DNA of 64,000 nucleotides from Haplodiscus bocki (taxonomy: Eukaryota): assembly GCA_965655095.1 (NCBI GenBank), contig OZ296659.1:70928001-70992000 (forward strand), in the 5' to 3' direction. Shown here piece by piece: positions 49,680 to 64,000 of this stretch. Below the pieces are notes generated by a model that saw nothing but the letters and a program-made list of their open reading frames with translations, did not search any database and was not told where the DNA came from. Each line of letters starts with the position of its first letter. Positions within the stretch are counted from its first letter, which is position 1. Position numbers and translations under genes: made by a program.

Positions 49680-50602
49680 AGGTGCGTTTTTTTAACCGAT
49701 GTTTGCCAATTGACCTCGCGCTAAAAACGATGTTGGCTCGCGTTGTGAAAATTTTTTTGCTAAGATTGCCAAAATGGCCTATATGGCTTAAAATAAAAAA
49801 GCAAAAAATCTGAAAAAACCAAGAAAGCCAGAAAAAAAACAAAAAAAAAGAAAAAGCCAAAAAACAGCCACAACTGCCAAAATTGCTAAAAATGCCAAAA
49901 AGCCAAAGAAGCCAAGAAAGACAAAAAAGCCAAAAAAAAGTCGAAAAAGCCAGAAAACCCAAAAAAGCCACAACTGCCAAAAATGCTAAAAATGCCAAAA
50001 AACAAAAGAACCAAAAAAGCCAAAAAGCCAAAAAAAGCCAAGAAAGACAGAAAAGCCAAAAAAAAATCAAAAAAGCCATAAAAACCAAAATTGCCAAAAA
50101 TGCCGCAAAAGTCGAAAATTCCAGTAAAACCAAGAAAGCCGAAAAAACCAAAATTGCCAAAAAAGCCAAAATTGCCGAAAATCCAAAAAAGCCAAGAAAG
50201 TCAAAAATGCCAAGATTGCCAAGATTGCAGAAATTGCCGAGATTGCCAAGATTGCCGAGACTGAAATAGTGAGATTTTTCAAAATGTTCAAAAATTGAGT
50301 CTTTTTTGGAAAAATAGATGGGCTTTTCGAAAAAAGCTTGAATTTTATTCAATGTCTTTAAAAATGGCAACTTTGCTAAAGAATGCGTATCATATGGTTT
50401 TATTTCTCAAAAATGTCTTCCGCCCTATTTATGAGGTTTTTGTCGCAAAAAAAATCAAGAAACTTTGAACGTTGGAAAAATTATAAACTATGATGAAGAA
50501 AGAGGGTTTTTTTGAGAAAAAAAAACGTTTTCATCTTTTTAAAAGCCTTCTTTACCACAATGGGAAGGCGCAAAATATGCCGGTGGTAGCCGGCCGTCTT
50601 GT
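49680..50602 (+). mobile_element. Probable non-autonomous Helitron-like element containing the minisatellite
   Basis: The 3' end has a GC hairpin GCCGG-TGGTAG-CCGGC (50579-50594) followed by CGTCTTG|T. A second degenerate copy of the same end lies at 52392-52422. The 5' boundary is not resolved. Confidence 0.45.
49760..50262. repeat. Degenerate ~9-bp minisatellite (AAAAGCCAA / AGATTGCCA)
   Basis: Dozens of GCCAAAA/GCCAAGA cores. It produces the spurious K/A-rich and F/L-rich ORFs at 49621-50370. Confidence 0.9.
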
Positions 50603-53232: not shown

Positions 53233-53403
53233 AATCTGACAGAAGAAGTTTTTCAAAATATTGAGGTTATTTTGAAACTAGCGGAGTGCTACTTTAGCCG
53301 TTTGAAGTATAGGGAACAAAACTCTCAGAAAAAAAATTCCATCTGTGATGAATATTAGACGTTGGTAACCCGGGCTGACCACCCATTGATGGAATAGAAC
53401 ATT

Positions 53404-54420
53404 AGTAGTGTATAAACGGGCATTTGACGCCAAAAGCCGCGGACGCACATAAAGCCGACCAGTATTTGACGCCACAACTATGGACTCAGGGTATTACAAG
53501 AGCAATTTGACAGCAAAGGTATGGACTCATAGACTTAGAAAATCAATTAGACACCAAAACACATGCCCTCGTAGAGGTATCCATACACAGGAAAGAAAAT
53601 TTAATTTTGTAAAAATTTTTTTGAGTAGTCTTATCAATGGGGTACACAGGTATGAAAATTTAATTTTGTAAAAAGTTTTTTGAATAGTCTTATCAATGGG
53701 TGTACACAGGAAATAAATTTTAACATACCTGTTTTTTCTCCACCGTATAAATGTAAGAAAACGTGTAAAAATAATTCCACATTTCACAAAAATTTCACAG
53801 ATTTCTTCACAGAATTCTTCACAGAATTGTCGTTTTTTGTGAAAATTTCACAGAATTATCGTTTTTTGTGAAGAAATTTACTGGCTGACGAATGATACAC
53901 ATTTTTTTCCGAGCACAGACCATAAAAATTGTACCTGCACGTCAGCGGATTATTTTTTGTCTAAAGCGAAGAACACGATTTCTGAGAAATACAAACACTA
54001 TGTCGCCATCCTTAAACATGTAGAGATTATAAAATTTTGAGGTACAAATACAAATGATACATCGTTAGAAAGCTCGTTAAAAGTTTAGTAAACGCTGAAA
54101 ATTTCAGCCTTGTATCTATTACCATCTTCGAGAAAATTGACAAAAACAGTATATGTCGACATCCTTAAACATGTAGATTACAAAATTTTAAGCTACATAT
54201 ACAAATGATATACCATTCGATAGGTCGTTAAAATATTAGTGCATGCTGAAAATTTCAACTTTGTATCTATTATAATCTTTGAGAAAATTGACAAAAACCG
54301 AAAATGTCGACATCCTTAAACATGTAGAGATTATAAGTGATATATTTTTGGATAGCTCATGAAAATATTAGTGTATGTTGAAAATTTCAGCTTTGTATCT
54401 GTTATCATTTTCGAGAAATT
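53404..54420. repeat. Polinton terminal region (putative TIR) with internal direct repeats
   Basis: AGTAGT at 53404; TTTGACGCCA x2 and ATGGACTCA x2; a ~59-bp unit x2.5 at ~53585-53720; TTCACAGA repeats at ~53790-53855; a ~152-bp unit x3 at ~54000-54420 (TGTCG(A/C)CATCCTTAAACATGTAGA). The partner TIR is outside the window, so TIR length is unknown. Confidence 0.7.
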
Positions 54421-54770
54421 AAAATTATACTTATCTATACAAGTATACAAAGTTTTATTCATACAAATATATGAATAATTAAAATATGTTAAATTATTCA
54501 TACAAGTATACTTATAATTATATCATTATTCATATTTAAATAAGTGTAATTTTACGATAATAACTATTCTTTATAAGTACTTGGTACAATTATATTTGTT
54601 TGTATACCAGAGATATACTTACAAGTATATGAGTACTTATACATATTTTAGTATTTGTATAAGATTTCATGTAAGTATACCTGGATTGTTATAAGAATAC
54701 CATTGGTGACATGCAAAATGAAAAGTATTTCTACAATCATTGCAATGAGTTTGAATAGAATCACGATTTT

Positions 54771-55136
54771 TTACATATTTCTGAAACCTATAATTTCTCC
54801 AGTATCACTATCTTCTGATAATTCATAATAATCAATGGATTCAGATTCTGTATCACTTTCATTTTCATATTGTGATAAACCATCATAGAGTTTCTTAATT
54901 TCTTGTAAGACACCTGGTTTTTTTAAATTAATCATATCAGTTATTTTAACAGTTAGATCAATCAGGTCACGTATATCATCTTCACAATAATTCAAATTAA
55001 ATTTTTCGATTCTATCATACATTTTAAATCTTAGCACTTCTGATACAAAATATAATTTATTATTGTGTTCGAAATCAAACATGTTATTTTCATCAAAACT
55101 ATCTAAATACAGCAAAACATCTTTAATATCCTTCAT
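54771..55136 (-). CDS. Polinton hypothetical protein, 121 aa, acidic C-terminus
   Basis: Clean ORF inside the element with the TAAATG start context shared by other element genes. No recognisable motif. Confidence 0.65.
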   Translation of the reverse strand: MKDIKDVLLYLDSFDENNMFDFEHNNKLYFVSEVLRFKMYDRIEKFNLNYCEDDIRDLIDLTVKITDMINLKKPGVLQEIKKLYDGLSQYENESDTESESIDYYELSEDSDTGEIIGFRNM

Positions 55137-55276
55137 TTAAATTGTTCTAATTGATTTCAAATATTCAAAGATCATAGTTATCAAATTCATATTCTTTAAC
55201 AATAATATTTTTCGTTTAATAATTTTAGTTGTTTAAAACTGAAATGGAAACTACTCTATAATCATAATCATAACTT

Positions 55277-58200
55277 TCAATTCCATGGTATACTTTTAAT
55301 ATTATTTATATAACATCGTTTATCATCAAACAATGATAGTGTAGATTTTTTTACTTCTTGAAGAATCATTTCATGATTAATTGATCTTATAATATAATTA
55401 TTACATTCTCTTTGATAATCTCCACCAAATAAACAATTATAATATTCTTCAAATTTAATATGTTTTTATTGAGATTTTGAAATGCCTTTTGTTTTGTTTT
55501 TATTTTCATCATTGTTTTTACATTTAAACGAATAAGCTTTTGATCTTAAACAAACAAATTCATCTATCCAAATGCTTTTAGGAGTCTCAATTTTAAATCT
55601 ACCAATCACTTTTTTGTTTTTATTACTGAACAATTCATGATTTTCATCTAAGTTACTGAAATCAAAAATATCTTCTAAATTTTTTAAGTCTTTGATAATG
55701 TCTTTTGTTTTCATACTCAATATCATACCATCGGTATCAACATAATGTAATTGTAAATTTTCTTGTCCAAAATATGGTTGTAGTATATCATAATATGTTT
55801 CATACATATGTAATTTACTTAATTCCAAAATACTAAAACCAACATATATAGCTTTATCCATAACGATTTCATTTTTTTTATATGTGAAACTATAATAGTT
55901 TTCATATGTTTTTTGTATACCATTAAATGTTACTTTTCATTGTTGATCAACAATTTTTTTAATATTATCCTTTTTAATTAATTCTAACTCTAAACGATTG
56001 CGAACATTTTCCAAAAATTTGCCAAAAGCAGCATTAACAAGCAATTTAAAGAAGTCTTTTTCGAAATCATTTTTAGCTTTGTTTCGTTTTTGTGTATTAA
56101 AACTAATATAACCCTCCAACCATCTACTTTGTTTGAATGATATTATTTCATGAATTTTTTCAACTATCATACCATGTCTTACATAAAACTTTAACATTCT
56201 ATAATGAATAAGATACTTCTTTTTATCAGTCCAATCACATATTAACTTTTTAGATTTTGTATAGTTTTCTGGTTTTATAGTATTCATATATTCATTATAT
56301 TTATTTGGATCTATTTTTTTATTTTCTGGACAAAACGGAAAATACTTGGTTTTTTGTTTTATATTATCAGGATATTTTAGATCGACTTCAAGAAAATAAC
56401 CAATTTCACTATCGTCTGGTGTATTTAATATCTCTTCTAACCAATTCCAATACTTATCAGGATGACCATGCCAAATCTCGATTTCATCATAAGGTAAAAA
56501 TTGACTCATTGAATGACCATATAAATTAGTAGCATCAATATATAATATACTATTATCCTCATCTGATTTTACATAACGATCACCCATTACAGAGCTTATG
56601 CCTCCTCGTATATTATTCTCTATTAACAAAATCAGATCTTTATCTTGTAATGTTTGTAATTTGATATCAGTATATTTCAAAGCACATTGATATGTATAAC
56701 CTGGTAAACTCACACAATATAACGGATTAATCTTATATTCTTTGGTAGATACTTTTACAAATTTTTCAAAAGCATCAGCTAATAAAATAACATCAGTTTT
56801 ACAATATAATCTAGTTAATTGTTCTCCATCTTTGATATTGAATAGTTTAATAATTTCTTTAGTTCGTTCAATTTCATCATCATCGGGATAATCATTTTTT
56901 AATTTACTGAAGAAGTCTTCTTTTTTTAAATTATCAACAGGTTTTTTATAATCATCAATACTATTGAAATATTCATATGGGTATGCTAGTTTTTTATTTA
57001 AATATTGCCATTGGTCAGGAAATTCTTTTTTCAGAATTTTAAAGTCATCCTCATCCAAATTTTTAACTAATTTATCCAAACTCTCTGATAGGAAACGATA
57101 ACTATCAATAAATCTAATACAACCATATTTAACTGAAATATATTCTTCGTTTGTTTTAGGTATAATTTTAAATTTTACTTTATCTTTTTTTAAATCAACC
57201 AACTTTTTAAAAAACATATGACAATCGTAATTACTGAAATTATGAAAAGCAAATGGTATAAAATTACTATCTTTCTGTTTAAGGTTTATATTACAAGTGT
57301 TATGTGCCGATCCTCTGTATTTTCCTGTTAAATGGCAATGATCACGAACCTTATCAGATAATATTTCTTTTTCACAAAATAGACAAATATTATTGTTTTT
57401 AAAATCTTCTTCATTTTCTTTTGTCATAATGATATCTTTTTTAGTGTTTTTAAAATAGAAGGTCATTTTATTTTCTAATTTTATAACTTCTTTAACAAAC
57501 CAATCAACATTATTATATCCTAGGGGAGATTCGTAATAACCACTTTCTAAAACATCTTTCAATTCAGATATTATATAATATCCATTAAGTACAGGATTCT
57601 GTTTGTATATGTTGGTTGTTTTGTTTCCTATCTTAGAATTATCTTTTTCATTATCGGCTTCGAAATCGGCGATAATCCTAAAATATAATGGATTTTTATG
57701 AAAGTGTTTTTTCCAATACAGATGTGATTCATTTGATGTTCTTATAGTACAAATATTATCATCTTCACATTTTTCTTTATGATTAGTTAAAGCATTTTCA
57801 AACGTATAAGAATTTAAACACCGTCTACATACAAAACTTTTGTGATGATCTCCTAAAAATACATGCAATTTCTTAATGAGTGCATAATGATTTTTATAGA
57901 TTAATAAATCAACAAATTTATCTGAATCATTTTTACTGATTTCGATGGGTATTAAATTATGCTTCCATTTATCCCCATCTTGATAGAAGTTCAATTCATA
58001 TATATTTACAGATAAATTATTTAATTCATTAAATTTGTGAACATCACTACATTTGAAACCATTTGTAAAATCAAAACTTTGAAAGTTTAATTCATTAAAA
58101 TATTGTATATAATTGTTTACTCTTGATGGATGCGTATTTTCACAAGGATGAAGACCAGCCAAAATTGACCAAATAAAACAAAATTTATCATTATTTTGAA

Positions 58201-58945
58201 TATTTAAGATAGCATTTGATCTCAATGGAATCTTAACATAAGAAGTACCGTCTAATTCTGTGGTTTTATAAAATGATATTTTCATTGAGTTAATTTTATC
58301 AAATATCCATCCAGAGTCTTTTGTTTCTTGTATCTGAATTTGGTGTTCTAATTGAGATCTAACGTCAATGTTATCAATATCAGATTCTGTTAAATTTTTA
58401 TTAATTTTCAAGTTTATATATAATTCAATTTCATTATCTCTCTGATCTTCTTCATTAATTTTATAAAAGCTTGCTGAAAATAATGTGTGATATTTAAATT
58501 TATATTGATTTATTAATCGAGAATAAATAACAGATAATTCTTTTACGATTCCATTAATATATCTATATTCAATACCAATATCAGGATATTTACATGTAAT
58601 AGTCAAAATAGAATTTGCATGACTAATATTATGACTGTCTAAATTAATTTTTAAACCATTTTTTAAATTTCTATCAATAAAATAATATGGATTTATCATC
58701 ATTTTAGCAAATTCTTTATCATCTAATTTAATTTTTTCTCTTGCTAATTGTTTTAATGTTTTAGGGTTATATACTTTTTGTGTTTTTTTCTTAATAGGTG
58801 TTTTTTCTTCTTTAAAAAACCATTCTGGTATAATCATTTCATTTTGTTCTAATTTTTCTAAATGTTTTTTACTTCTCAAATGTTTTTGCATAGATGCTCT
58901 GTGTACATCAACATTACAAATTTCACATGTGCGGCTGTTTTCCAT
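55277..58945 (-). pseudogene. polB: Protein-primed family B DNA polymerase (pPolB), 1222 codons, interrupted by two in-frame stops (TGA 55937-55939, TAA 55466-55468)
   Basis: ExoI ADFE, ExoII FHNFSNYD, ExoIII YCKTDV; motif A YIDATNLYG, motif B KLLVNAAFGK, motif C YVDTDG (in the downstream 131-aa piece). The frame continues through both stops to ...DDKRCYINNIKSIPWN* at 55277. Confidence 0.93.
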
Positions 58946-59014
58946 TTTGCGTCCTATTTATATAGTATTATTTTATTGAAATGAAAACACTTCAATTAAA
59001 AATATAATAAATAA
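58946..59014. promoter_or_regulatory. Putative bidirectional promoter between polB and the 104-aa/integrase genes
   Basis: 69-bp AT-rich spacer between divergent starts, with TATATAAATAG on the minus strand just upstream of the polB ATG and TAAATAAATG at the plus-strand start. Confidence 0.45.
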
Positions 59015-59329
59015 ATGGAGAGTAAAATTTGCACTCAATGTAATATTGAAAAAGATATCAACAACTTTTACAAAAAATATACAGAATGTATAGACTGTAA
59101 CCGTGCAAGAGGACTAAAACGATATTATGCGAATAAAGATAAAATATCAAATCAACAAAAACTTTATTATGAAAAAAATAGGGATAGAATTTTATTACAG
59201 AAACAAAATAATAGAAGTATTCAATTTAGAGACTTAGTTATATCTTATATTGAATTAGAAAACAGATTAAAAACATTAGAAGAAAAATTGAATGTTTACA
59301 AAAATATAAATGACTCAGAAAAACATTAA
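59015..59329 (+). CDS. Small CxxC-x15-CxxC zinc-binding, basic/coiled-coil protein (104 aa)
   Basis: CTQC...CIDC, basic helix and heptad-like tail (LENRLKTLEEKL). TAAATG start; overlaps the integrase start by 20 nt. Confidence 0.75.
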   Translation: MESKICTQCNIEKDINNFYKKYTECIDCNRARGLKRYYANKDKISNQQKLYYEKNRDRILLQKQNNRSIQFRDLVISYIELENRLKTLEEKLNVYKNINDSEKH

Positions 59330-60161
59330 AATTTTTATAAACGAAATTTATTCCAAACCACCAAAAAAGAATTATATTACAAACAAAACAGATGTTTTTT
59401 ATATTGATGATACTTGGAGTTTAGATATTCTCGATCTCAAAGATTATGGTCCTGAAAATAATAGAGGGTACAGATATGTCCTTGTCACCATAGATAATTT
59501 CTCAAAATTTGGTTGGACAATACCTCTCAAAAATAAAAATGCTCAAACAATAAAAGACTCTTTCGAAAATATTTCGACAAATTCCAAAAGAAAACCAAAT
59601 TTAATCGAATCAGACAGAGGTAAAGAATTTTATAATAATATGTTTCAAGACTTCTTGAATAAAAACAATATCAAACTCTATTCTAGAAATAGTTCATATG
59701 GTGCTGTTTATGCAGAAAGATTTAATAGAACAATCAGAGATCTACTTAAAAAGATCGTTTTCGAACAAGGTGATGCAAAATGGATTGATATTTTACCTAC
59801 GATAACAAAACAATATAATAACAGAAGACATACATCAACAAAACTATCCCCAAAAGATGCTTCTCTAAAAAAGAATGAAGGATTCGTTTACAAAAATTTA
59901 TTAGACAAACGTAAAAAAGTAAAACCAAAATATGAAATAGGTGATTTAGTTAGAACAGCAGATTTAAAGAAGACTTTTTCAAAAGGAGACACAACTAATT
60001 GGTCTTATAAAATGTATAAAATAACAGAAATAATTAATGATACAATACCGAGTTATAAAATCGATAATTTAAAAGAAAGATATAACGAATCATTACTAAA
60101 AAAGACAGAGTTAACAATGAAAGAAAACAATGCAGTCATGAAAAAATTGAATTTAAACTAG
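59310..60161 (+). CDS. int: Polinton retroviral-like DDE integrase (rve), 283 aa
   Basis: WSLDILDL (D), YVLVTIDNFSKF, IESDRGKEF (D), AERFNRTIR (E), YNNRRHT, GDLVR...FSKG..TNWS. The frame is intact. Confidence 0.95.
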   Translation: MTQKNIKIFINEIYSKPPKKNYITNKTDVFYIDDTWSLDILDLKDYGPENNRGYRYVLVTIDNFSKFGWTIPLKNKNAQTIKDSFENISTNSKRKPNLIESDRGKEFYNNMFQDFLNKNNIKLYSRNSSYGAVYAERFNRTIRDLLKKIVFEQGDAKWIDILPTITKQYNNRRHTSTKLSPKDASLKKNEGFVYKNLLDKRKKVKPKYEIGDLVRTADLKKTFSKGDTTNWSYKMYKITEIINDTIPSYKIDNLKERYNESLLKKTELTMKENNAVMKKLNLN

Positions 60162-61403
60162 GTCAAGCATACGTTGTCCATCAGAGCTTATGCTTACTAA
60201 TCTATTTGTCAAAACCAGAGCATAGCCATATACTCCTACAGGTACTATTTTATCCAATTTAAATTCAATTTTTACTGATTGACCAGATTGATAATCTTTC
60301 TGATATCGTATATCGAAAACATGTATGTTATAACCAATATTATTATCATTATTATCTGATCTAAAATCATCTTCAGATATATATGATTGAAGAATGTTAT
60401 CTTTTGTGAGAGCTCTGAAAGCTTCTTTTATCTGACCATATCCTTGAGAATAATCATCATCGTCATAATTTAATAAAATAGCACTATCAGGATATTTTTC
60501 TGTTCCAATAATGCATTGAGCTGATGTTACGGGCATTCTATAAAAAGTATCGTTGTTCAATGTCTGATCATGTTGTCTGTCGTGTTGTTGGAAAGCTACA
60601 TATATCCATATAGGGACGTTAACTCCTTCTTGGGTACCTAGTTCAAAAGTCCAAAAATTTTGAGTATTGACTTCTTTCATGAAAACAGATCTTTCGGGAT
60701 AAAAAAGGTTTGTGGATGTTTTTTGTTTAAGTTGAATCTGTAATTTATTATATTCTTCAAGACTCGGAATGTAATGAGGAACATACCATTCTATTCCATT
60801 GATAACAATTTTAGCATTGTTGGTTGCGTTATTTTTATTCAAAACAGCATTTTCAGTATTTCTTGTTAGTGTTAATCGATAAGAAAGACCAAAAGTACCT
60901 GTTTCTTGATATTCAGCAAAACCGAAAACATCTTTTAGAAAAATTCTAAGATGAAATCTACCTTTCTGAGTTTTATTATCAAGCAATTCTCGTTTTCTCT
61001 TATCTCTACTACGATCGAAACCAATGGACAAATCATCACTATCTCTACTCGAAGATAATAACTTATACATTAAAGAAACAATGTGAGCATGGTCTATATT
61101 TTCCAAATGTTTACCTGAACTAGTTGTTAATTTATAGTTACTAAAAAGAGCAATTGGTCCAAGGTTGATTAACCGTATGTCATCAGCATCTGCATATCTG
61201 TTACTAGTAGCAGCTTTTAATACATCAAAATTTATTTCAATATAACTATTTAACAAACTAATAACACTATCTTCTCTAGGTATATTGATATATATCTGAG
61301 AATTAGGAGTGTTTATTGTACTAATTTCCGATGGACTATATCGTATATAATCACATTTCAAAATTTTTCTATTGATTTCATATTTTTCACTTAGTTTAAA
61401 CAT
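60153..61403 (-). CDS. Major capsid protein, double jelly-roll type (416 aa)
   Basis: Size, beta-rich alternating pattern and segments typical of Polinton MCPs (IPLK-like IFLKDVFGFAEY, LTLTRN, IEWYVPHY, PIWIYVAFQ). It lies in the same-strand block with the ATPase. The frame is intact. Confidence 0.8.
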   Translation of the reverse strand: MFKLSEKYEINRKILKCDYIRYSPSEISTINTPNSQIYINIPREDSVISLLNSYIEINFDVLKAATSNRYADADDIRLINLGPIALFSNYKLTTSSGKHLENIDHAHIVSLMYKLLSSSRDSDDLSIGFDRSRDKRKRELLDNKTQKGRFHLRIFLKDVFGFAEYQETGTFGLSYRLTLTRNTENAVLNKNNATNNAKIVINGIEWYVPHYIPSLEEYNKLQIQLKQKTSTNLFYPERSVFMKEVNTQNFWTFELGTQEGVNVPIWIYVAFQQHDRQHDQTLNNDTFYRMPVTSAQCIIGTEKYPDSAILLNYDDDDYSQGYGQIKEAFRALTKDNILQSYISEDDFRSDNNDNNIGYNIHVFDIRYQKDYQSGQSVKIEFKLDKIVPVGVYGYALVLTNRLVSISSDGQRMLDLV

Positions 61404-61493
61404 TTAAAATGTAAAAAAAAAACATGAATACATACTATTATACTTGTACATATACCTATGTATACTTACAAAGATATGGGTAATTATGCTTGT

Positions 61494-62345
61494 TTATTTG
61501 TTTAATAGATTACATTTAATTAAAATTTGTTTGTGTTGTTTCTTAGATATACATTTGTATTCTAATAATTTATCAACTATAGCAAATATTTCATCGTTAA
61601 TTATATCAGAATTATTACCAGCATGTTTTTCTTGTAATAATAACTTCAACCTATCACAAAGTTCATTAGGATCAGAGGATAGAATTAATGTTTTTGAGAT
61701 ACCAGAAGCCATGATAGCTGGTTGATCAAGTAGTCTAATCATTGAATTGTGTCTGACACTCGGTCGTCCTGTGCTTTTGGTATCATAGTTCATTTCTTTC
61801 GCAAATTTATAAATTATTTTTCGATCTTGTTGATTAGAATGATCTACATTGAATTTATGATTTGTTATCACTTTCAAAAGATCTCCTTCTAGTCTAAAAG
61901 TTTTGTCAGTATCTCGAAAAGTTATCATATTACTAAATATAGTAACTGGTATTTTTCCATGAATTAAAAAATTATTCAATTTAGTTGAATCAGGATCTTT
62001 TCTTAGTCTAAATTGACTTTTATTATCTTTTTTAAATACTTCTACTAGAGATGAAGCTAGATATGAGGTTATCATACCTTTTTCATCCATCAATTCTAAA
62101 ATTTTTTCGTTTAAATTTTCTATTGCTTTGTTATTATTAATAGAATTTTCCGTTAAAGTTCTTGTTATTTTTTCAGAAGTATTTTTTAATTCATCAGTCA
62201 TTGGTTTAAAAAATTTATTTATATCTTCATGATAGTTTTGATCACCAAGCTTATTTTGTAATCTAACTTCTTGTACTTGATTTTGTAACAAGACTGCATC
62301 GTTTAAAATTTTTAAATCTTCTCTATTTTTAATCGGAAACAACAT
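61494..62345 (-). CDS. Conserved Polinton hypothetical protein (283 aa)
   Basis: N-terminal FKPMTDEL coiled-coil and C-terminal DPNELCDRLKLLLQEKHAGNN...EI helical motif, which I recognise from Polinton ORFs. Function unknown. Confidence 0.75.
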   Translation of the reverse strand: MLFPIKNREDLKILNDAVLLQNQVQEVRLQNKLGDQNYHEDINKFFKPMTDELKNTSEKITRTLTENSINNNKAIENLNEKILELMDEKGMITSYLASSLVEVFKKDNKSQFRLRKDPDSTKLNNFLIHGKIPVTIFSNMITFRDTDKTFRLEGDLLKVITNHKFNVDHSNQQDRKIIYKFAKEMNYDTKSTGRPSVRHNSMIRLLDQPAIMASGISKTLILSSDPNELCDRLKLLLQEKHAGNNSDIINDEIFAIVDKLLEYKCISKKQHKQILIKCNLLNK

Positions 62346-62350
62346 TTATT

Positions 62351-63109
62351 TTAATCAAAAGGGTTAGTTTCACAAATACATTCAATAAATGTGGTTTTAC
62401 TTTCGTTAAAAATACAATATTTACCTTCGTTTTTATTTTTAGTCATATCAATACAGAGATAGTTATATTTTTCATCCCAAGCTTTATGACACATTTCTTT
62501 GAATTCATCATATTTCATATCATAGGCTCCGATATCATAATACATACTTTGAACATCTCTCAATGTTTGTTTAAAGAGAATTAATCTATCACTATTATTT
62601 CTAATGCTTTGTCTTGGTAAAGCGAAATAACTCTGACTAATGTAATATACATCTATATCCTCATGTCTTCCTCTCGTGAAAAATTCATCTATTTGAGAAC
62701 TATTTTTAGCTCCCAACATATCGTCAAAAATAACAACCGATCCTTTGTATTTGTTTATTGGTTTAATTTCGTTGCTTGTTTTATAATTAGGATATTGATT
62801 GGGAGATCGAGTTATTATATGAATCGGTCTTTGGTTACCTATTTTTTCAAGTACTTTAAGCATATAATAAGTTTTACCTACGTTACTGGGGCCAATAACA
62901 ACATGACGATGGTTTTCATATGTTGAAGTATCATTGTTAACGTTTTCAATATTTGGTTGATGGTAAGAAGTATTATTTTTATTTGGAGTTAAAGTGTTAA
63001 TATTGTTATTTCTTCTACTTATATTATAACAGCTTTTACAAACAGTTCTATCTTTTTTATAATTATTTTCATCTATCGTTATGTTACATACACTACAATT
63101 CCGATTCAT
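62351..63109 (-). CDS. Genome-packaging ATPase (A32/FtsK-HerA-like) with N-terminal CxxC-x15-CxxC module
   Basis: Walker A GPSNVGKT, Walker B VVIFDD, arginine motif FTRGRH and YISQSYF...IRNN. Confidence 0.92.
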   Translation of the reverse strand: MNRNCSVCNITIDENNYKKDRTVCKSCYNISRRNNNINTLTPNKNNTSYHQPNIENVNNDTSTYENHRHVVIGPSNVGKTYYMLKVLEKIGNQRPIHIITRSPNQYPNYKTSNEIKPINKYKGSVVIFDDMLGAKNSSQIDEFFTRGRHEDIDVYYISQSYFALPRQSIRNNSDRLILFKQTLRDVQSMYYDIGAYDMKYDEFKEMCHKAWDEKYNYLCIDMTKNKNEGKYCIFNESKTTFIECICETNPFD

Positions 63110-63135
63110 TTAATAAACAGAACAATTCATATTAT

Positions 63136-63210
63136 CAGAACAGAACAGAACAGAACAGAACAGAACAGAACAGAACAGAACAGAACAGAACAGAACAGAG
63201 CAGAACAGAT
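63136..63210 (+). repeat. (CAGAA)15 microsatellite
   Basis: Pentanucleotide run with two variant units (CAGAG, CAGAT), 27 bp upstream of the ATPase ATG. Confidence 0.98.
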
Positions 63211-63305
63211 CAGTTATTATTAAACATAAACGTTTTTTTAAGTTCTAGGTTGAAATTTTAATTTATTATGACTAAAAAAGTTTAATTTTATTTTTATATT
63301 CATAT

Positions 63306-63839
63306 TTATAAAAAAGATTCATTTTTGTTTTCATCTACATATCTAGTAAAAATATTACATAAACTATCTTATTCAGTTTTATTGATTACATTATCTTGTA
63401 AAGATTTTCTGTATAATTTATCAAAGGATTTAATAGTATTTTGATCTCTTTCATATAGTTTTTTGTATTTATTGTATTTGTTTAAGATTAATTTATGTAA
63501 TACTTTATTACCTAATGATAGAGCACAAGCGATACCAGCTGATATTGGTAATACAATCAATCCTATACCTATAATTGATAGAGTTATCGAAGTCGAAGTA
63601 GCTCCGATGATTACGATACTGTCTACTGATTCTAATACTGTGTTTAATGTTTTGTAATTTTTATATTTCTTTTTAGATTTGTGGTTTTCGTCTTTGAAAT
63701 AATTTATCATTTCTTTAATATTATTAATATGGTTATTAAAACTATTTACATCATTTATTTTCTTCTCTAACCGTTTTTCTAAATCAATATTTTCTAATAA
63801 TGGTGCAGTGGGATATAGTTTATCTGTTTTTGCTTCCAT
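63306..63839 (-). CDS. Polinton small membrane protein (hydrophobic hairpin); 156 aa to TAA at 63369-63371, probably a premature stop in a 177-codon gene
   Basis: N-terminal LYPTAPLL, basic helix, long G/A/S/I-rich hydrophobic stretch and basic tail. After the TAA the frame continues DSLCNIFTRYVDENKNESFL* to 63306. Confidence 0.75.
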
Positions 63840-63853
63840 TTATATAACATAAA

Positions 63854-64000
63854 TTATGAAAATCTAGGTAAGTATAAGCCTTTGCCGGTGTGATAGAAAT
63901 TAATTACTTCGGGCAATGTGGATAATGCTGCTTTTGGACTTTTGGTTGCGGCTGCTGTGGCAATGTTTGAAGTAATTTCCAAAGCTCTTCCTGGATTTTT
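63854..64000 (-). CDS. 3' end of a further Polinton ORF truncated by the window edge (possible virion core protein)
   Basis: Open frame KNPGRALEITSNIATAAATKSPKAALSTLPEVINFYHTGKGLYLPRFS* ending at 63854, Ala-rich with a terminal GKGLYL motif. Not in the supplied ORF track. Confidence 0.7.
   Translation of the reverse strand, partial: KNPGRALEITSNIATAAATKSPKAALSTLPEVINFYHTGKGLYLPRFS

Follow-up and report, generated by a model that had tools for sequence, protein, structure and literature searches.

A Polinton integrated in the genome of Haplodiscus bocki encodes a small, predicted SLATT-like membrane protein whose N-terminal tail carries LYPTAPLL, in which an exact PTAP overlaps LYPx3L. The sequence evidence for ESCRT-binding motifs in this protein and its relatives is good, and LYP(S/T)AP is, judged from its codon usage, a real feature under selection. 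The second finding, which is new here, concerns the other end of the gene. In both families of the protein, called A (that of the window) and B, the gene ends on a U-UUU-UUA heptamer with a −1-frame tail that is, by its pattern of substitution, selected and coding. Binding of ESCRT-I and ALIX by the N-terminal tail, taken alone, appears quite probable from these sequences. The egress role and the recoding mechanism are proposed by analogy with known viruses. On balance it is probable that the protein would act like orbivirus NS3, as a membrane protein recruiting TSG101 and ALIX, with capsids leaving the cell non-lytically in membrane. On the same analogy, these elements likely exit cells wrapped in membrane. 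The window is the whole stretch of DNA analysed, 64,000 nt, and positions given without a locus name refer to it (Table 1).

Table 1. Features of the Polinton and of its SLATT-like gene in the window
Feature	Position	Strand	Remark
Left terminal inverted repeat	53396..54679	n/a	1,284 bp
Polymerase gene (pPolB)	55466..58945	-	interrupted
rve integrase	59310..60161	+	PF00665
Double-jelly-roll major capsid protein	60153..61403	-	PF21738, E 1e-10
A32-type packaging ATPase	62351..63109	-	downstream neighbour in 71/71 family A loci
25-codon −1-frame tail	63238..63315	-	purifying selection; no late motif; matches family B tail in position and core pattern
SLATT-like two-helix membrane protein gene	63306..63839	-	177 codons in most sister copies; window copy broken by in-frame stop
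T-TTT-TTA heptamer, candidate −1 slippery site	63309..63315	-	directly before the normal stop codon
Premature TAA	63369..63371	-	codon 157 of the window copy
Hydrophobic hairpin, ~aa 72-110	63510..63626	-	predicted turn aa 91-92; no lumenal loop
Basic amphipathic helix, aa 21-70	63630..63779	-	first arm of predicted helical hairpin
LYPTAPLL, PTAP (TSG101-type) overlapping LYPx3L (ALIX-type)	63795..63818	-	predicted disordered N-terminal tail
TAAATG start context of the SLATT-like gene	63837..63842	-	
3' part of upstream 132-aa ORF, cupiennin/pVI-like by eye	63854..64000	-	beside 71/71 family A loci

The gene belongs to an element of ~18.3 kb that has the hallmarks of a Polinton, namely a protein-primed PolB, an rve integrase, an A32 ATPase, a double-jelly-roll capsid protein and long terminal inverted repeats. 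The repeats are 98.4% identical and the right one lies ~7 kb past the end of the window; the polymerase gene has a stop near 55937 despite this identity. Candidate ORFs for a penton and an adenain-type protease were recognised by eye at the family A locus L031, without a Pfam match, and no envelope or fusion protein was recognised among the ORFs of the element. The gene had been placed in a block of virion genes, and it does adjoin the ATPase gene and lie near the capsid gene. The order 132-aa ORF, SLATT-like gene, ATPase is found at all 71 other family A loci, and the 132-aa ORF has no Pfam match. TAAATG, which we take to be a start like that of poxvirus late promoters, is present at 17 of 18 gene starts (window 54771-63839 and L031:855-7451), the exception being the polymerase gene. 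Gene order around the SLATT-like gene differs between the two families. Family B has a small CxGGRH/Cys-rich ORF (~52 aa) separate from a cupiennin-like ORF (L051:2084-2667, L052:2077-2661), and in family A the two are apparently fused as the 132-aa ORF (L031:855-1253).

Residues 8-15 read LYPTAPLL in the minus-strand frame that begins at 63839, as originally described. The same description took the whole interval as a single open frame, and this has to be corrected. Because of the in-frame TAA at codon 157 the window copy encodes 156 aa; open frames of ~177 aa are found in most sister copies (the 150 best-scoring, with 150 scored out of 16,194 genome candidates). The stop, the SLATT-like class of the protein and the −1-frame tail all went unmentioned in the original prediction. 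Its basic helix followed by a hydrophobic stretch was borne out, with 12 Lys or Arg in residues 21-70 and a Kyte-Doolittle peak of 2.3 in the stretch that follows.

The window protein has no significant Pfam match and no SLATT match. Its predicted layout, two hydrophobic helices with long flanking helices, is that of SLATT, a module known from bacterial immune effectors. When the SLATT_1 profile (PF18181) was scanned blind over the 1.5-Gb genome, it gave 19 matches, all below the cut-off: 11 to the target family, seven to a 204-aa protein of family B and one unrelated. The best reach 17-20 bits and the curated cut-off is 26.3 bits, which is short of formal membership. All five family B proteins match the profile, at best with E 0.003. 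The protein is filed here as SLATT-like, below the formal profile score.

An AlphaFold model (21-row alignment, mean pLDDT 69) leaves residues 1-14 unstructured, with pLDDT ~45, and places helices at 15-90 and 93-151. The tail is also unstructured in the model of a distant homologue. Confidence in that model is low around the hydrophobic tip, which leaves the membrane geometry uncertain. No signal peptide was seen and the flanks of the hydrophobic stretch are basic, which puts the tail on the predicted cytosolic side, as the original proposal required of the motif. Searches with the fold against solved structures returned generic coiled-coil hairpins only, and a likeness to ESCRT-III/Vipp1 was discarded, as those rows were no better than unrelated ones. 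In the search against viral models the top rows were an iridovirus ORF (E 0.009), a giant-virus SLATT protein (E 0.03) and bluetongue virus (BTV) NS3 (E 0.067); viral SLATT models rank 2, 10 and 25, all with E > 0.001. The invertebrate iridovirus proteins S6DF61, A0A5B8RH66 and A0A068QKD3 top both fold searches, with E ~0.01-0.15 and at most 26% identity, and are possible homologues. A reading of the C-terminal ESFL as a class I PDZ-binding motif was rejected, as it fails in family B and in the lineages that end in NFL.

LYPTAPLL contains the sole P[ST]AP in the 4,557 residues of the element's 19 ORFs. The expected number is 0.009, and 17 of 2,000 shuffles give one. It is also the sole LYPx1-3L in these ORFs, which 15% of shuffles give; the loose form YPx1-3[LI] turns up in 95% of shuffles and by itself says nothing. 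LYP[ST]APLL is present in 111 of 120 close homologues. As these are 86-99% identical, the codon pattern is more telling than residue conservation. Position 11 is Ser in 47 and Thr in 13 of 60 ungapped genomic copies (from 72 loci) and nothing else, and is encoded by TCN in 15, AGY in 32 and ACN in 13. It is the only one of 23 columns rich in Ser and Thr that uses all three codon boxes without another residue. In the same copies one residue accounts for 97-100% at positions 8-10, 12 and 13, and the flanking positions are less constant (32-80% at positions 3 and 5-7, 58-60% at 15-17). The residues are thus kept as a motif, in line with the original prediction. In the closest copies pN/pS is 0.085 for the motif vs 0.088 for the following helix, that is, with no extra constraint on the motif. 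In a sister subfamily, 8 of 27 copies have Phe in place of the last Leu, position 14. P[ST]AP is kept in 8 of the 24 family A representatives (50% clusters) that have an N-terminal tail, and many of these representatives look decayed; 121 records have no tail to score. The overlap of the two motifs, as originally proposed, holds for the window protein, and the Phe copies show that it is not a general feature.

The motif recurs in relatives. N-terminal YP is invariant in an 11-row alignment with identities of ~21-76%, and N-terminal (L/I)YP recurs in lineages at 33-61% mutual identity. Lineage C has [LI]YPx1-3[LI] in 46 of 63 members and a separate P[ST]AP in 25 of 63, and lineage D has LYPSAP in three of four. 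Three distant lineages, E, F and G, have LYPNL, LYPSL and IYPVL, respectively, in N-terminal tails without PSAP, and here too the proposed overlap does not extend. PSAP is either fused to LYP, 3-10 residues downstream of it or C-terminal, and stays intact. From this lineage survey, N-terminal YP is a deep feature, PSAP is frequent and mobile, and the fusion is limited to lineages A and D. Lineages C and D were not found in the H. bocki genome, where the best match is 44%. Families A and B are homologous (HHalign probability 96%, E 3.7e-9; ~25% identity). In family B, YP[DN][LI] stands at the N-terminus of 61 of 67 parsed copies (YPDL 41, YPNL 11, YPDI 9); eight of the 75 copies were not parsed. 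A metagenome scan gave two loci, L045 and L046, both family A-like and on 1-kb contigs, and L045 has the same upstream ORF, heptamer and −1 tail as family A. No relative was found in the viral contigs scanned, there was no match among phage records, and PDB sequences gave no match (best E 0.29). In the Atlas, the homologue P0158 falls in unnamed clusters at 0.93-0.94, viral and molluscan, without Pfam.

Published adintovirus Slatt records extend this survey. In the accessible part of the PMC11071296 supplement, 6 of 18 labelled records have the same layout by eye. Four of these six have an N-terminal YPx[LI], three have PSAP and two have neither. One of them combines an N-terminal YPDL with an in-frame C-terminal PSAP, which is the layout expected of a shifted family B product. 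The other 12 of the 18 lack, by eye, P[ST]AP or a comparable N-terminal YPxL. Adintovirus maps place a named SLATT gene next to Cupiennin (Starrett 2021, PMC8502044). The likeness to the Slatt genes of adintoviruses and Polinton-like viruses (PLVs) thus covers the architecture, by eye, and the profile that picks the target genes in 18 of its 19 blind-scan matches; the difference is that all SLATT_1 scores of the target families lie below the curated cut-off. Adintovirus GasderminX likewise belongs to the accessory genes of Beta-class virion modules and is small and membrane-active (PMC8502044). It consists of a gasdermin-C-like body and a C-terminal pX-like segment in ~100-120 aa, and the target differs from it by eye. 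The identity was rejected on the four GasderminX records in the accessible material, which are of that length, have another layout and carry no N-terminal late motif by eye.

The host possesses the partners that these motifs would require. A TSG101 UEV exon matches residues 44-143 of human TSG101 with E 2e-28, and its PTAP-groove residues are kept or conservatively changed. ALIX V-domain exons are also present in the genome. Co-folding of the host UEV exon (107 aa) with the 32-aa tail, done without alignments, scored 0.01 (mark 0.34) and is uninformative either way. There is a second UEV-domain match, with an internal stop (L137; G000:C1:62186947-62187237). The original prediction of a candidate ESCRT-recruiting protein stands as a candidacy on the conserved motif, the disordered and predicted cytosolic tail, the recurrence of the motif in relatives and the host TSG101 and ALIX; its egress part would hold by analogy.

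The 3' end of the gene is unusual in both families. Family A genes end in TCT-TTT-TTA-TAA (window 63306-63317), and family B has AAT-TTT-TTA ~4 codons before the stop. The heptamer is present in 38 of 42 parsed copies (of 48) of one family A subfamily, in 20 of 24 (of 30) of the second and in 55 of 67 parsed family B copies. There are only four in-frame occurrences of it in the 4,465 codons of the element. [NS]F stands near the protein end in 10 of 11 aligned proteins, after linkers of widely differing length. The Ser175 codon is TCT in 37 of 37 copies, and 11 other Ser columns use 2-4 codons; the invariance of the Phe and Leu codons of the heptamer is non-discriminating, as two other Phe columns are also invariant. 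U-UUU-UUA is the frameshift site of HIV-1 (PMC4373837) and of alphavirus 6K/TF (PMC2569925).

The −1 frame behind the heptamer evolves as protein-coding sequence would. In family A the 25-codon tail has pN/pS of 0.28, 0.11 and 0.21 and is stop-free in the full-length class; the other frames have pN/pS of 0.68-4.8 and many stops. Fourteen of 24 tails are full length in the second family A subfamily. The family B tail has ~36-38 codons and shares with family A the core N-I-x-I-x-[LF]-N-F-F; its pN/pS is 0.35 in the −1 frame vs 1.29 and 1.25 in the other frames. It ends in PSAPPxY, which is in an open −1 frame in 47 of 67 copies, in frame 0 in 4 (with a longer T-run) and broken or absent in 16. 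The PSAPP codons include all four Pro codons, and Ser is AGT in 41, TCT in 15 and AGC in 1. The spacing to PSAPPxY is 87 nt in 51 of 62 copies and divisible by three in 56 of the 62. Variants within the core and PSAPP are all third-position among the 40 best-supported of 63 (~3,300 contigs per run). ATG occurs in only 3 of 48 open family B tails. An N-terminal YPDL together with a −1 tail ending in PSAPPxY behind T-TTT-TTA is seen at L066:2094-2207, for example, and at 66 other family B loci.

In family A most copies of the tail contain an ATG of their own; the tail carries no late motif and has AATAAA and TTTTTNT elements. Its pS is 0.17 vs 0.36 for the gene; this lower synonymous divergence means that a nucleotide-level signal may overlap the tail. 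Candidate routes to the −1 tail are a ribosomal shift, polymerase slippage and non-AUG initiation. Two readings of the T-run as another kind of signal each fit one family only. A possible splice acceptor fits family B (TTTTTTAG) and not family A, where TAA follows, and the poxvirus terminator TTTTTNT fits family A only. The four sequencing runs behave like genomic DNA, and no consistent joint was found in them. No shared stimulatory RNA structure was found in pseudoknot-free folds of four sequences (z 0.11, -1.94, -0.72, -1.67). The conserved heptamer and the selected tail behind it argue for a recoded longer form. The lack of a conserved stimulatory structure argues against a −1 shift, as do the features of the family A tail, which has an ATG, lower pS and no late motif. 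It is fairly probable from these patterns that a −1 shift gives a minority longer form, which in family B would add the PSAPPxY late domain. In the window, a (CAGAA) × 15.6 microsatellite (63136-63213) separates the −1-frame tail from the start of the ATPase gene.

How might such a protein work? The TAAATG start and the gene neighbourhood suggest that it is expressed late, together with the virion genes. The long helical hairpin would insert into the membrane and oligomerise with both ends cytosolic, and the tail would then bind ESCRT-I and ALIX. Scission of the membrane may serve particle release. A −1 shift at U-UUU-UUA, by ribosomal or polymerase slippage, would supply a minority of longer molecules.

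The closest analogy is with the orbivirus proteins NS3 and NS3A. BTV NS3 is a small protein of a non-enveloped virus that drives non-lytic release, and its PSAP is needed for budding (PMC6949946). Orbivirus NS3 has N-terminal late domains (PSAP and PPxY), a coiled coil and a polybasic stretch before two transmembrane segments, with both ends cytosolic, and the target is built alike. When viral folds were searched with the target model, BTV NS3 came third, a match that falls short of significance (E 0.067, 11% identity) and demonstrates no homology. The two also differ, in that NS3 has a glycosylated loop between its helices and the target model has a two-residue turn. Unlike in NS3, LYP and P(S/T)AP overlap in the target, which is encoded by a DNA element integrated in the host genome. 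The motif types themselves, LYP(S/T)AP in family A and YPDL with PSAPPEY in family B, are the three found in HIV-1 p6 (PTAP and LYPxnL), EIAV p9 (YPDL) and Ebola VP40 (overlapping PTAP/PPEY) (PMC8402826). In retroviruses and filoviruses, which are enveloped RNA viruses, the motifs belong to Gag or matrix proteins. The Polinton motifs are carried by a predicted integral membrane protein, and the element, a DNA element with a double-jelly-roll capsid, has no recognised envelope protein. The 3' end resembles alphavirus 6K/TF, where a conserved UUUUUUA is the −1 shift site of a small membrane protein whose transframe form is tied to budding (PMC2569925). Unlike that of 6K/TF, the Polinton site stands at the gene's extreme end, where a shift would lengthen the entire protein, and it has no predicted 3' stimulator; homology is not claimed.

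Several lines of evidence argue for NS3-like release. These are the constraint on the motif, with position 11 restricted to Ser and Thr and positions 8-10, 12 and 13 constant; the recurrence of (L/I)YP and PSAP in distant lineages, family B and published Slatt records; the tail that is unstructured in the model, the basic flanks and the TSG101 UEV and ALIX V domains of the host; and the like anatomy of BTV NS3 with its required PSAP. Against it stand the equal pN/pS of motif and helix, the missing PSAP in lineages E, F and G, the Phe at the last Leu, the low retention of P[ST]AP among family A representatives, and the Slatt records without motifs (two of the six and all 12 others in the accessible supplement). 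The published SLATT proposals for PLVs also differ from it, no envelope or fusion protein was recognised and the window copy is broken. The broadest version is put forward only tentatively: animal Polintons may be ESCRT-released, membrane-cloaked viruses in which a SLATT module was turned into an NS3-like egress protein, with a late-domain dose set by −1 recoding as in 6K/TF.

The published proposals lead to the first alternative. For the SLATT proteins of PLVs, pore-based entry, lysis, or abortive infection and defence have been suggested, and not budding (PMC12220804, 10.64898/2026.10.13.758929). The target protein could be a SLATT effector that forms pores or ruptures membranes during entry or end-of-cycle lysis, with ESCRT motifs that serve sorting to multivesicular bodies (MVBs) or that time or limit the damage, and do not serve release. 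Its SLATT-like class is in keeping with this, as is the cupiennin/pVI-like ORF beside it, which is found at all 71 loci of family A and at 28 of 35 in family B, and PSAPPxY would recruit ubiquitin ligases too (PMC6949946). A small viral membrane protein that bears a cluster of two or three distinct late motifs is, however, typically a release protein (PMC8402826), and this explanation is considered unlikely. The pore and release readings can hold together, as NS3 acts as a viroporin and also as an egress factor.

It is more improbable still that LYP(S/T)AP is a structural cap or a site for another partner, packing against the hairpin or contacting the capsid or an adaptor, with the match to late domains incidental and the downstream frame a micropeptide or a transcription signal. 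YP is kept more widely than either full consensus, motif and core are equally constrained in close copies, and the ATG, AATAAA and TTTTTNT elements of the family A tail would be accounted for. An incidental match does not sit well, however, with a PSAP that changes place among relatives yet stays intact, with toggling between Ser and Thr across three codon boxes, with a tail that is unstructured in both models, or with a family B tail that is nearly ATG-free yet keeps PSAPPxY through synonymous change. The last explanation, in which the element depends on a poxvirus-like helper virus and the protein either withholds ESCRT from that virus or directs Polinton capsids into its wrapping membranes, is the least probable: it draws on TAAATG at nearly all gene starts, on PLVs in entomopoxvirus occlusion bodies (PMC11296320) and on the use of ESCRT in vaccinia egress (PMC8321658), but late motifs occur in published elements too, in a comparison of their protein sequences.

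NS3-like release would bear on how animal Polintons leave cells. Nematode Polintons have been proposed to be enveloped because they carry a fusogen, and a release mechanism is not given in the accessible part of that paper (10.1101/2022.07.12.499685). Penton and hexon genes, and not Slatt, have been proposed to use −1 shifts (Buck 2024, PMC11071296). Late domains, ESCRT or a frameshift in the Slatt gene are not mentioned in the accessible parts of the PMC8502044 preprint, PMC11071296, PMC12220804, 10.64898/2026.06.19.733378 and 10.64898/2026.10.13.758929. Among the top-ranked literature matches, which took in few subscription journals and included part of 10.64898/2026.04.29.721553, none connected a protein of Polintons or adintoviruses with ESCRT or late domains. 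If release of the NS3 kind is confirmed, it would be the first concrete exit route for animal Polintons and for the horizontal transfer that they mediate, and a widespread Polinton 'pore' gene would become an ESCRT adaptor. Annotations would then miss a hidden C-terminal late domain because it is one frame off. The exit question can be tested without handling the element, on a tail of 32 residues and a recoding cassette of 100 nt.

Some further ORFs were seen in and around the element. At L031:1478-3728 there are two penton-like ORFs, by eye, of which the second ends early and has its end overlapped by a 74-aa ORF in another frame. A 142-aa ORF with a helix-turn-helix match (PF13412, E 2e-5) lies at L031:5255-5683. 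Outside the element, positions 49892-50269 of the window hold a 125-aa Lys/Ala-rich ORF of low complexity.
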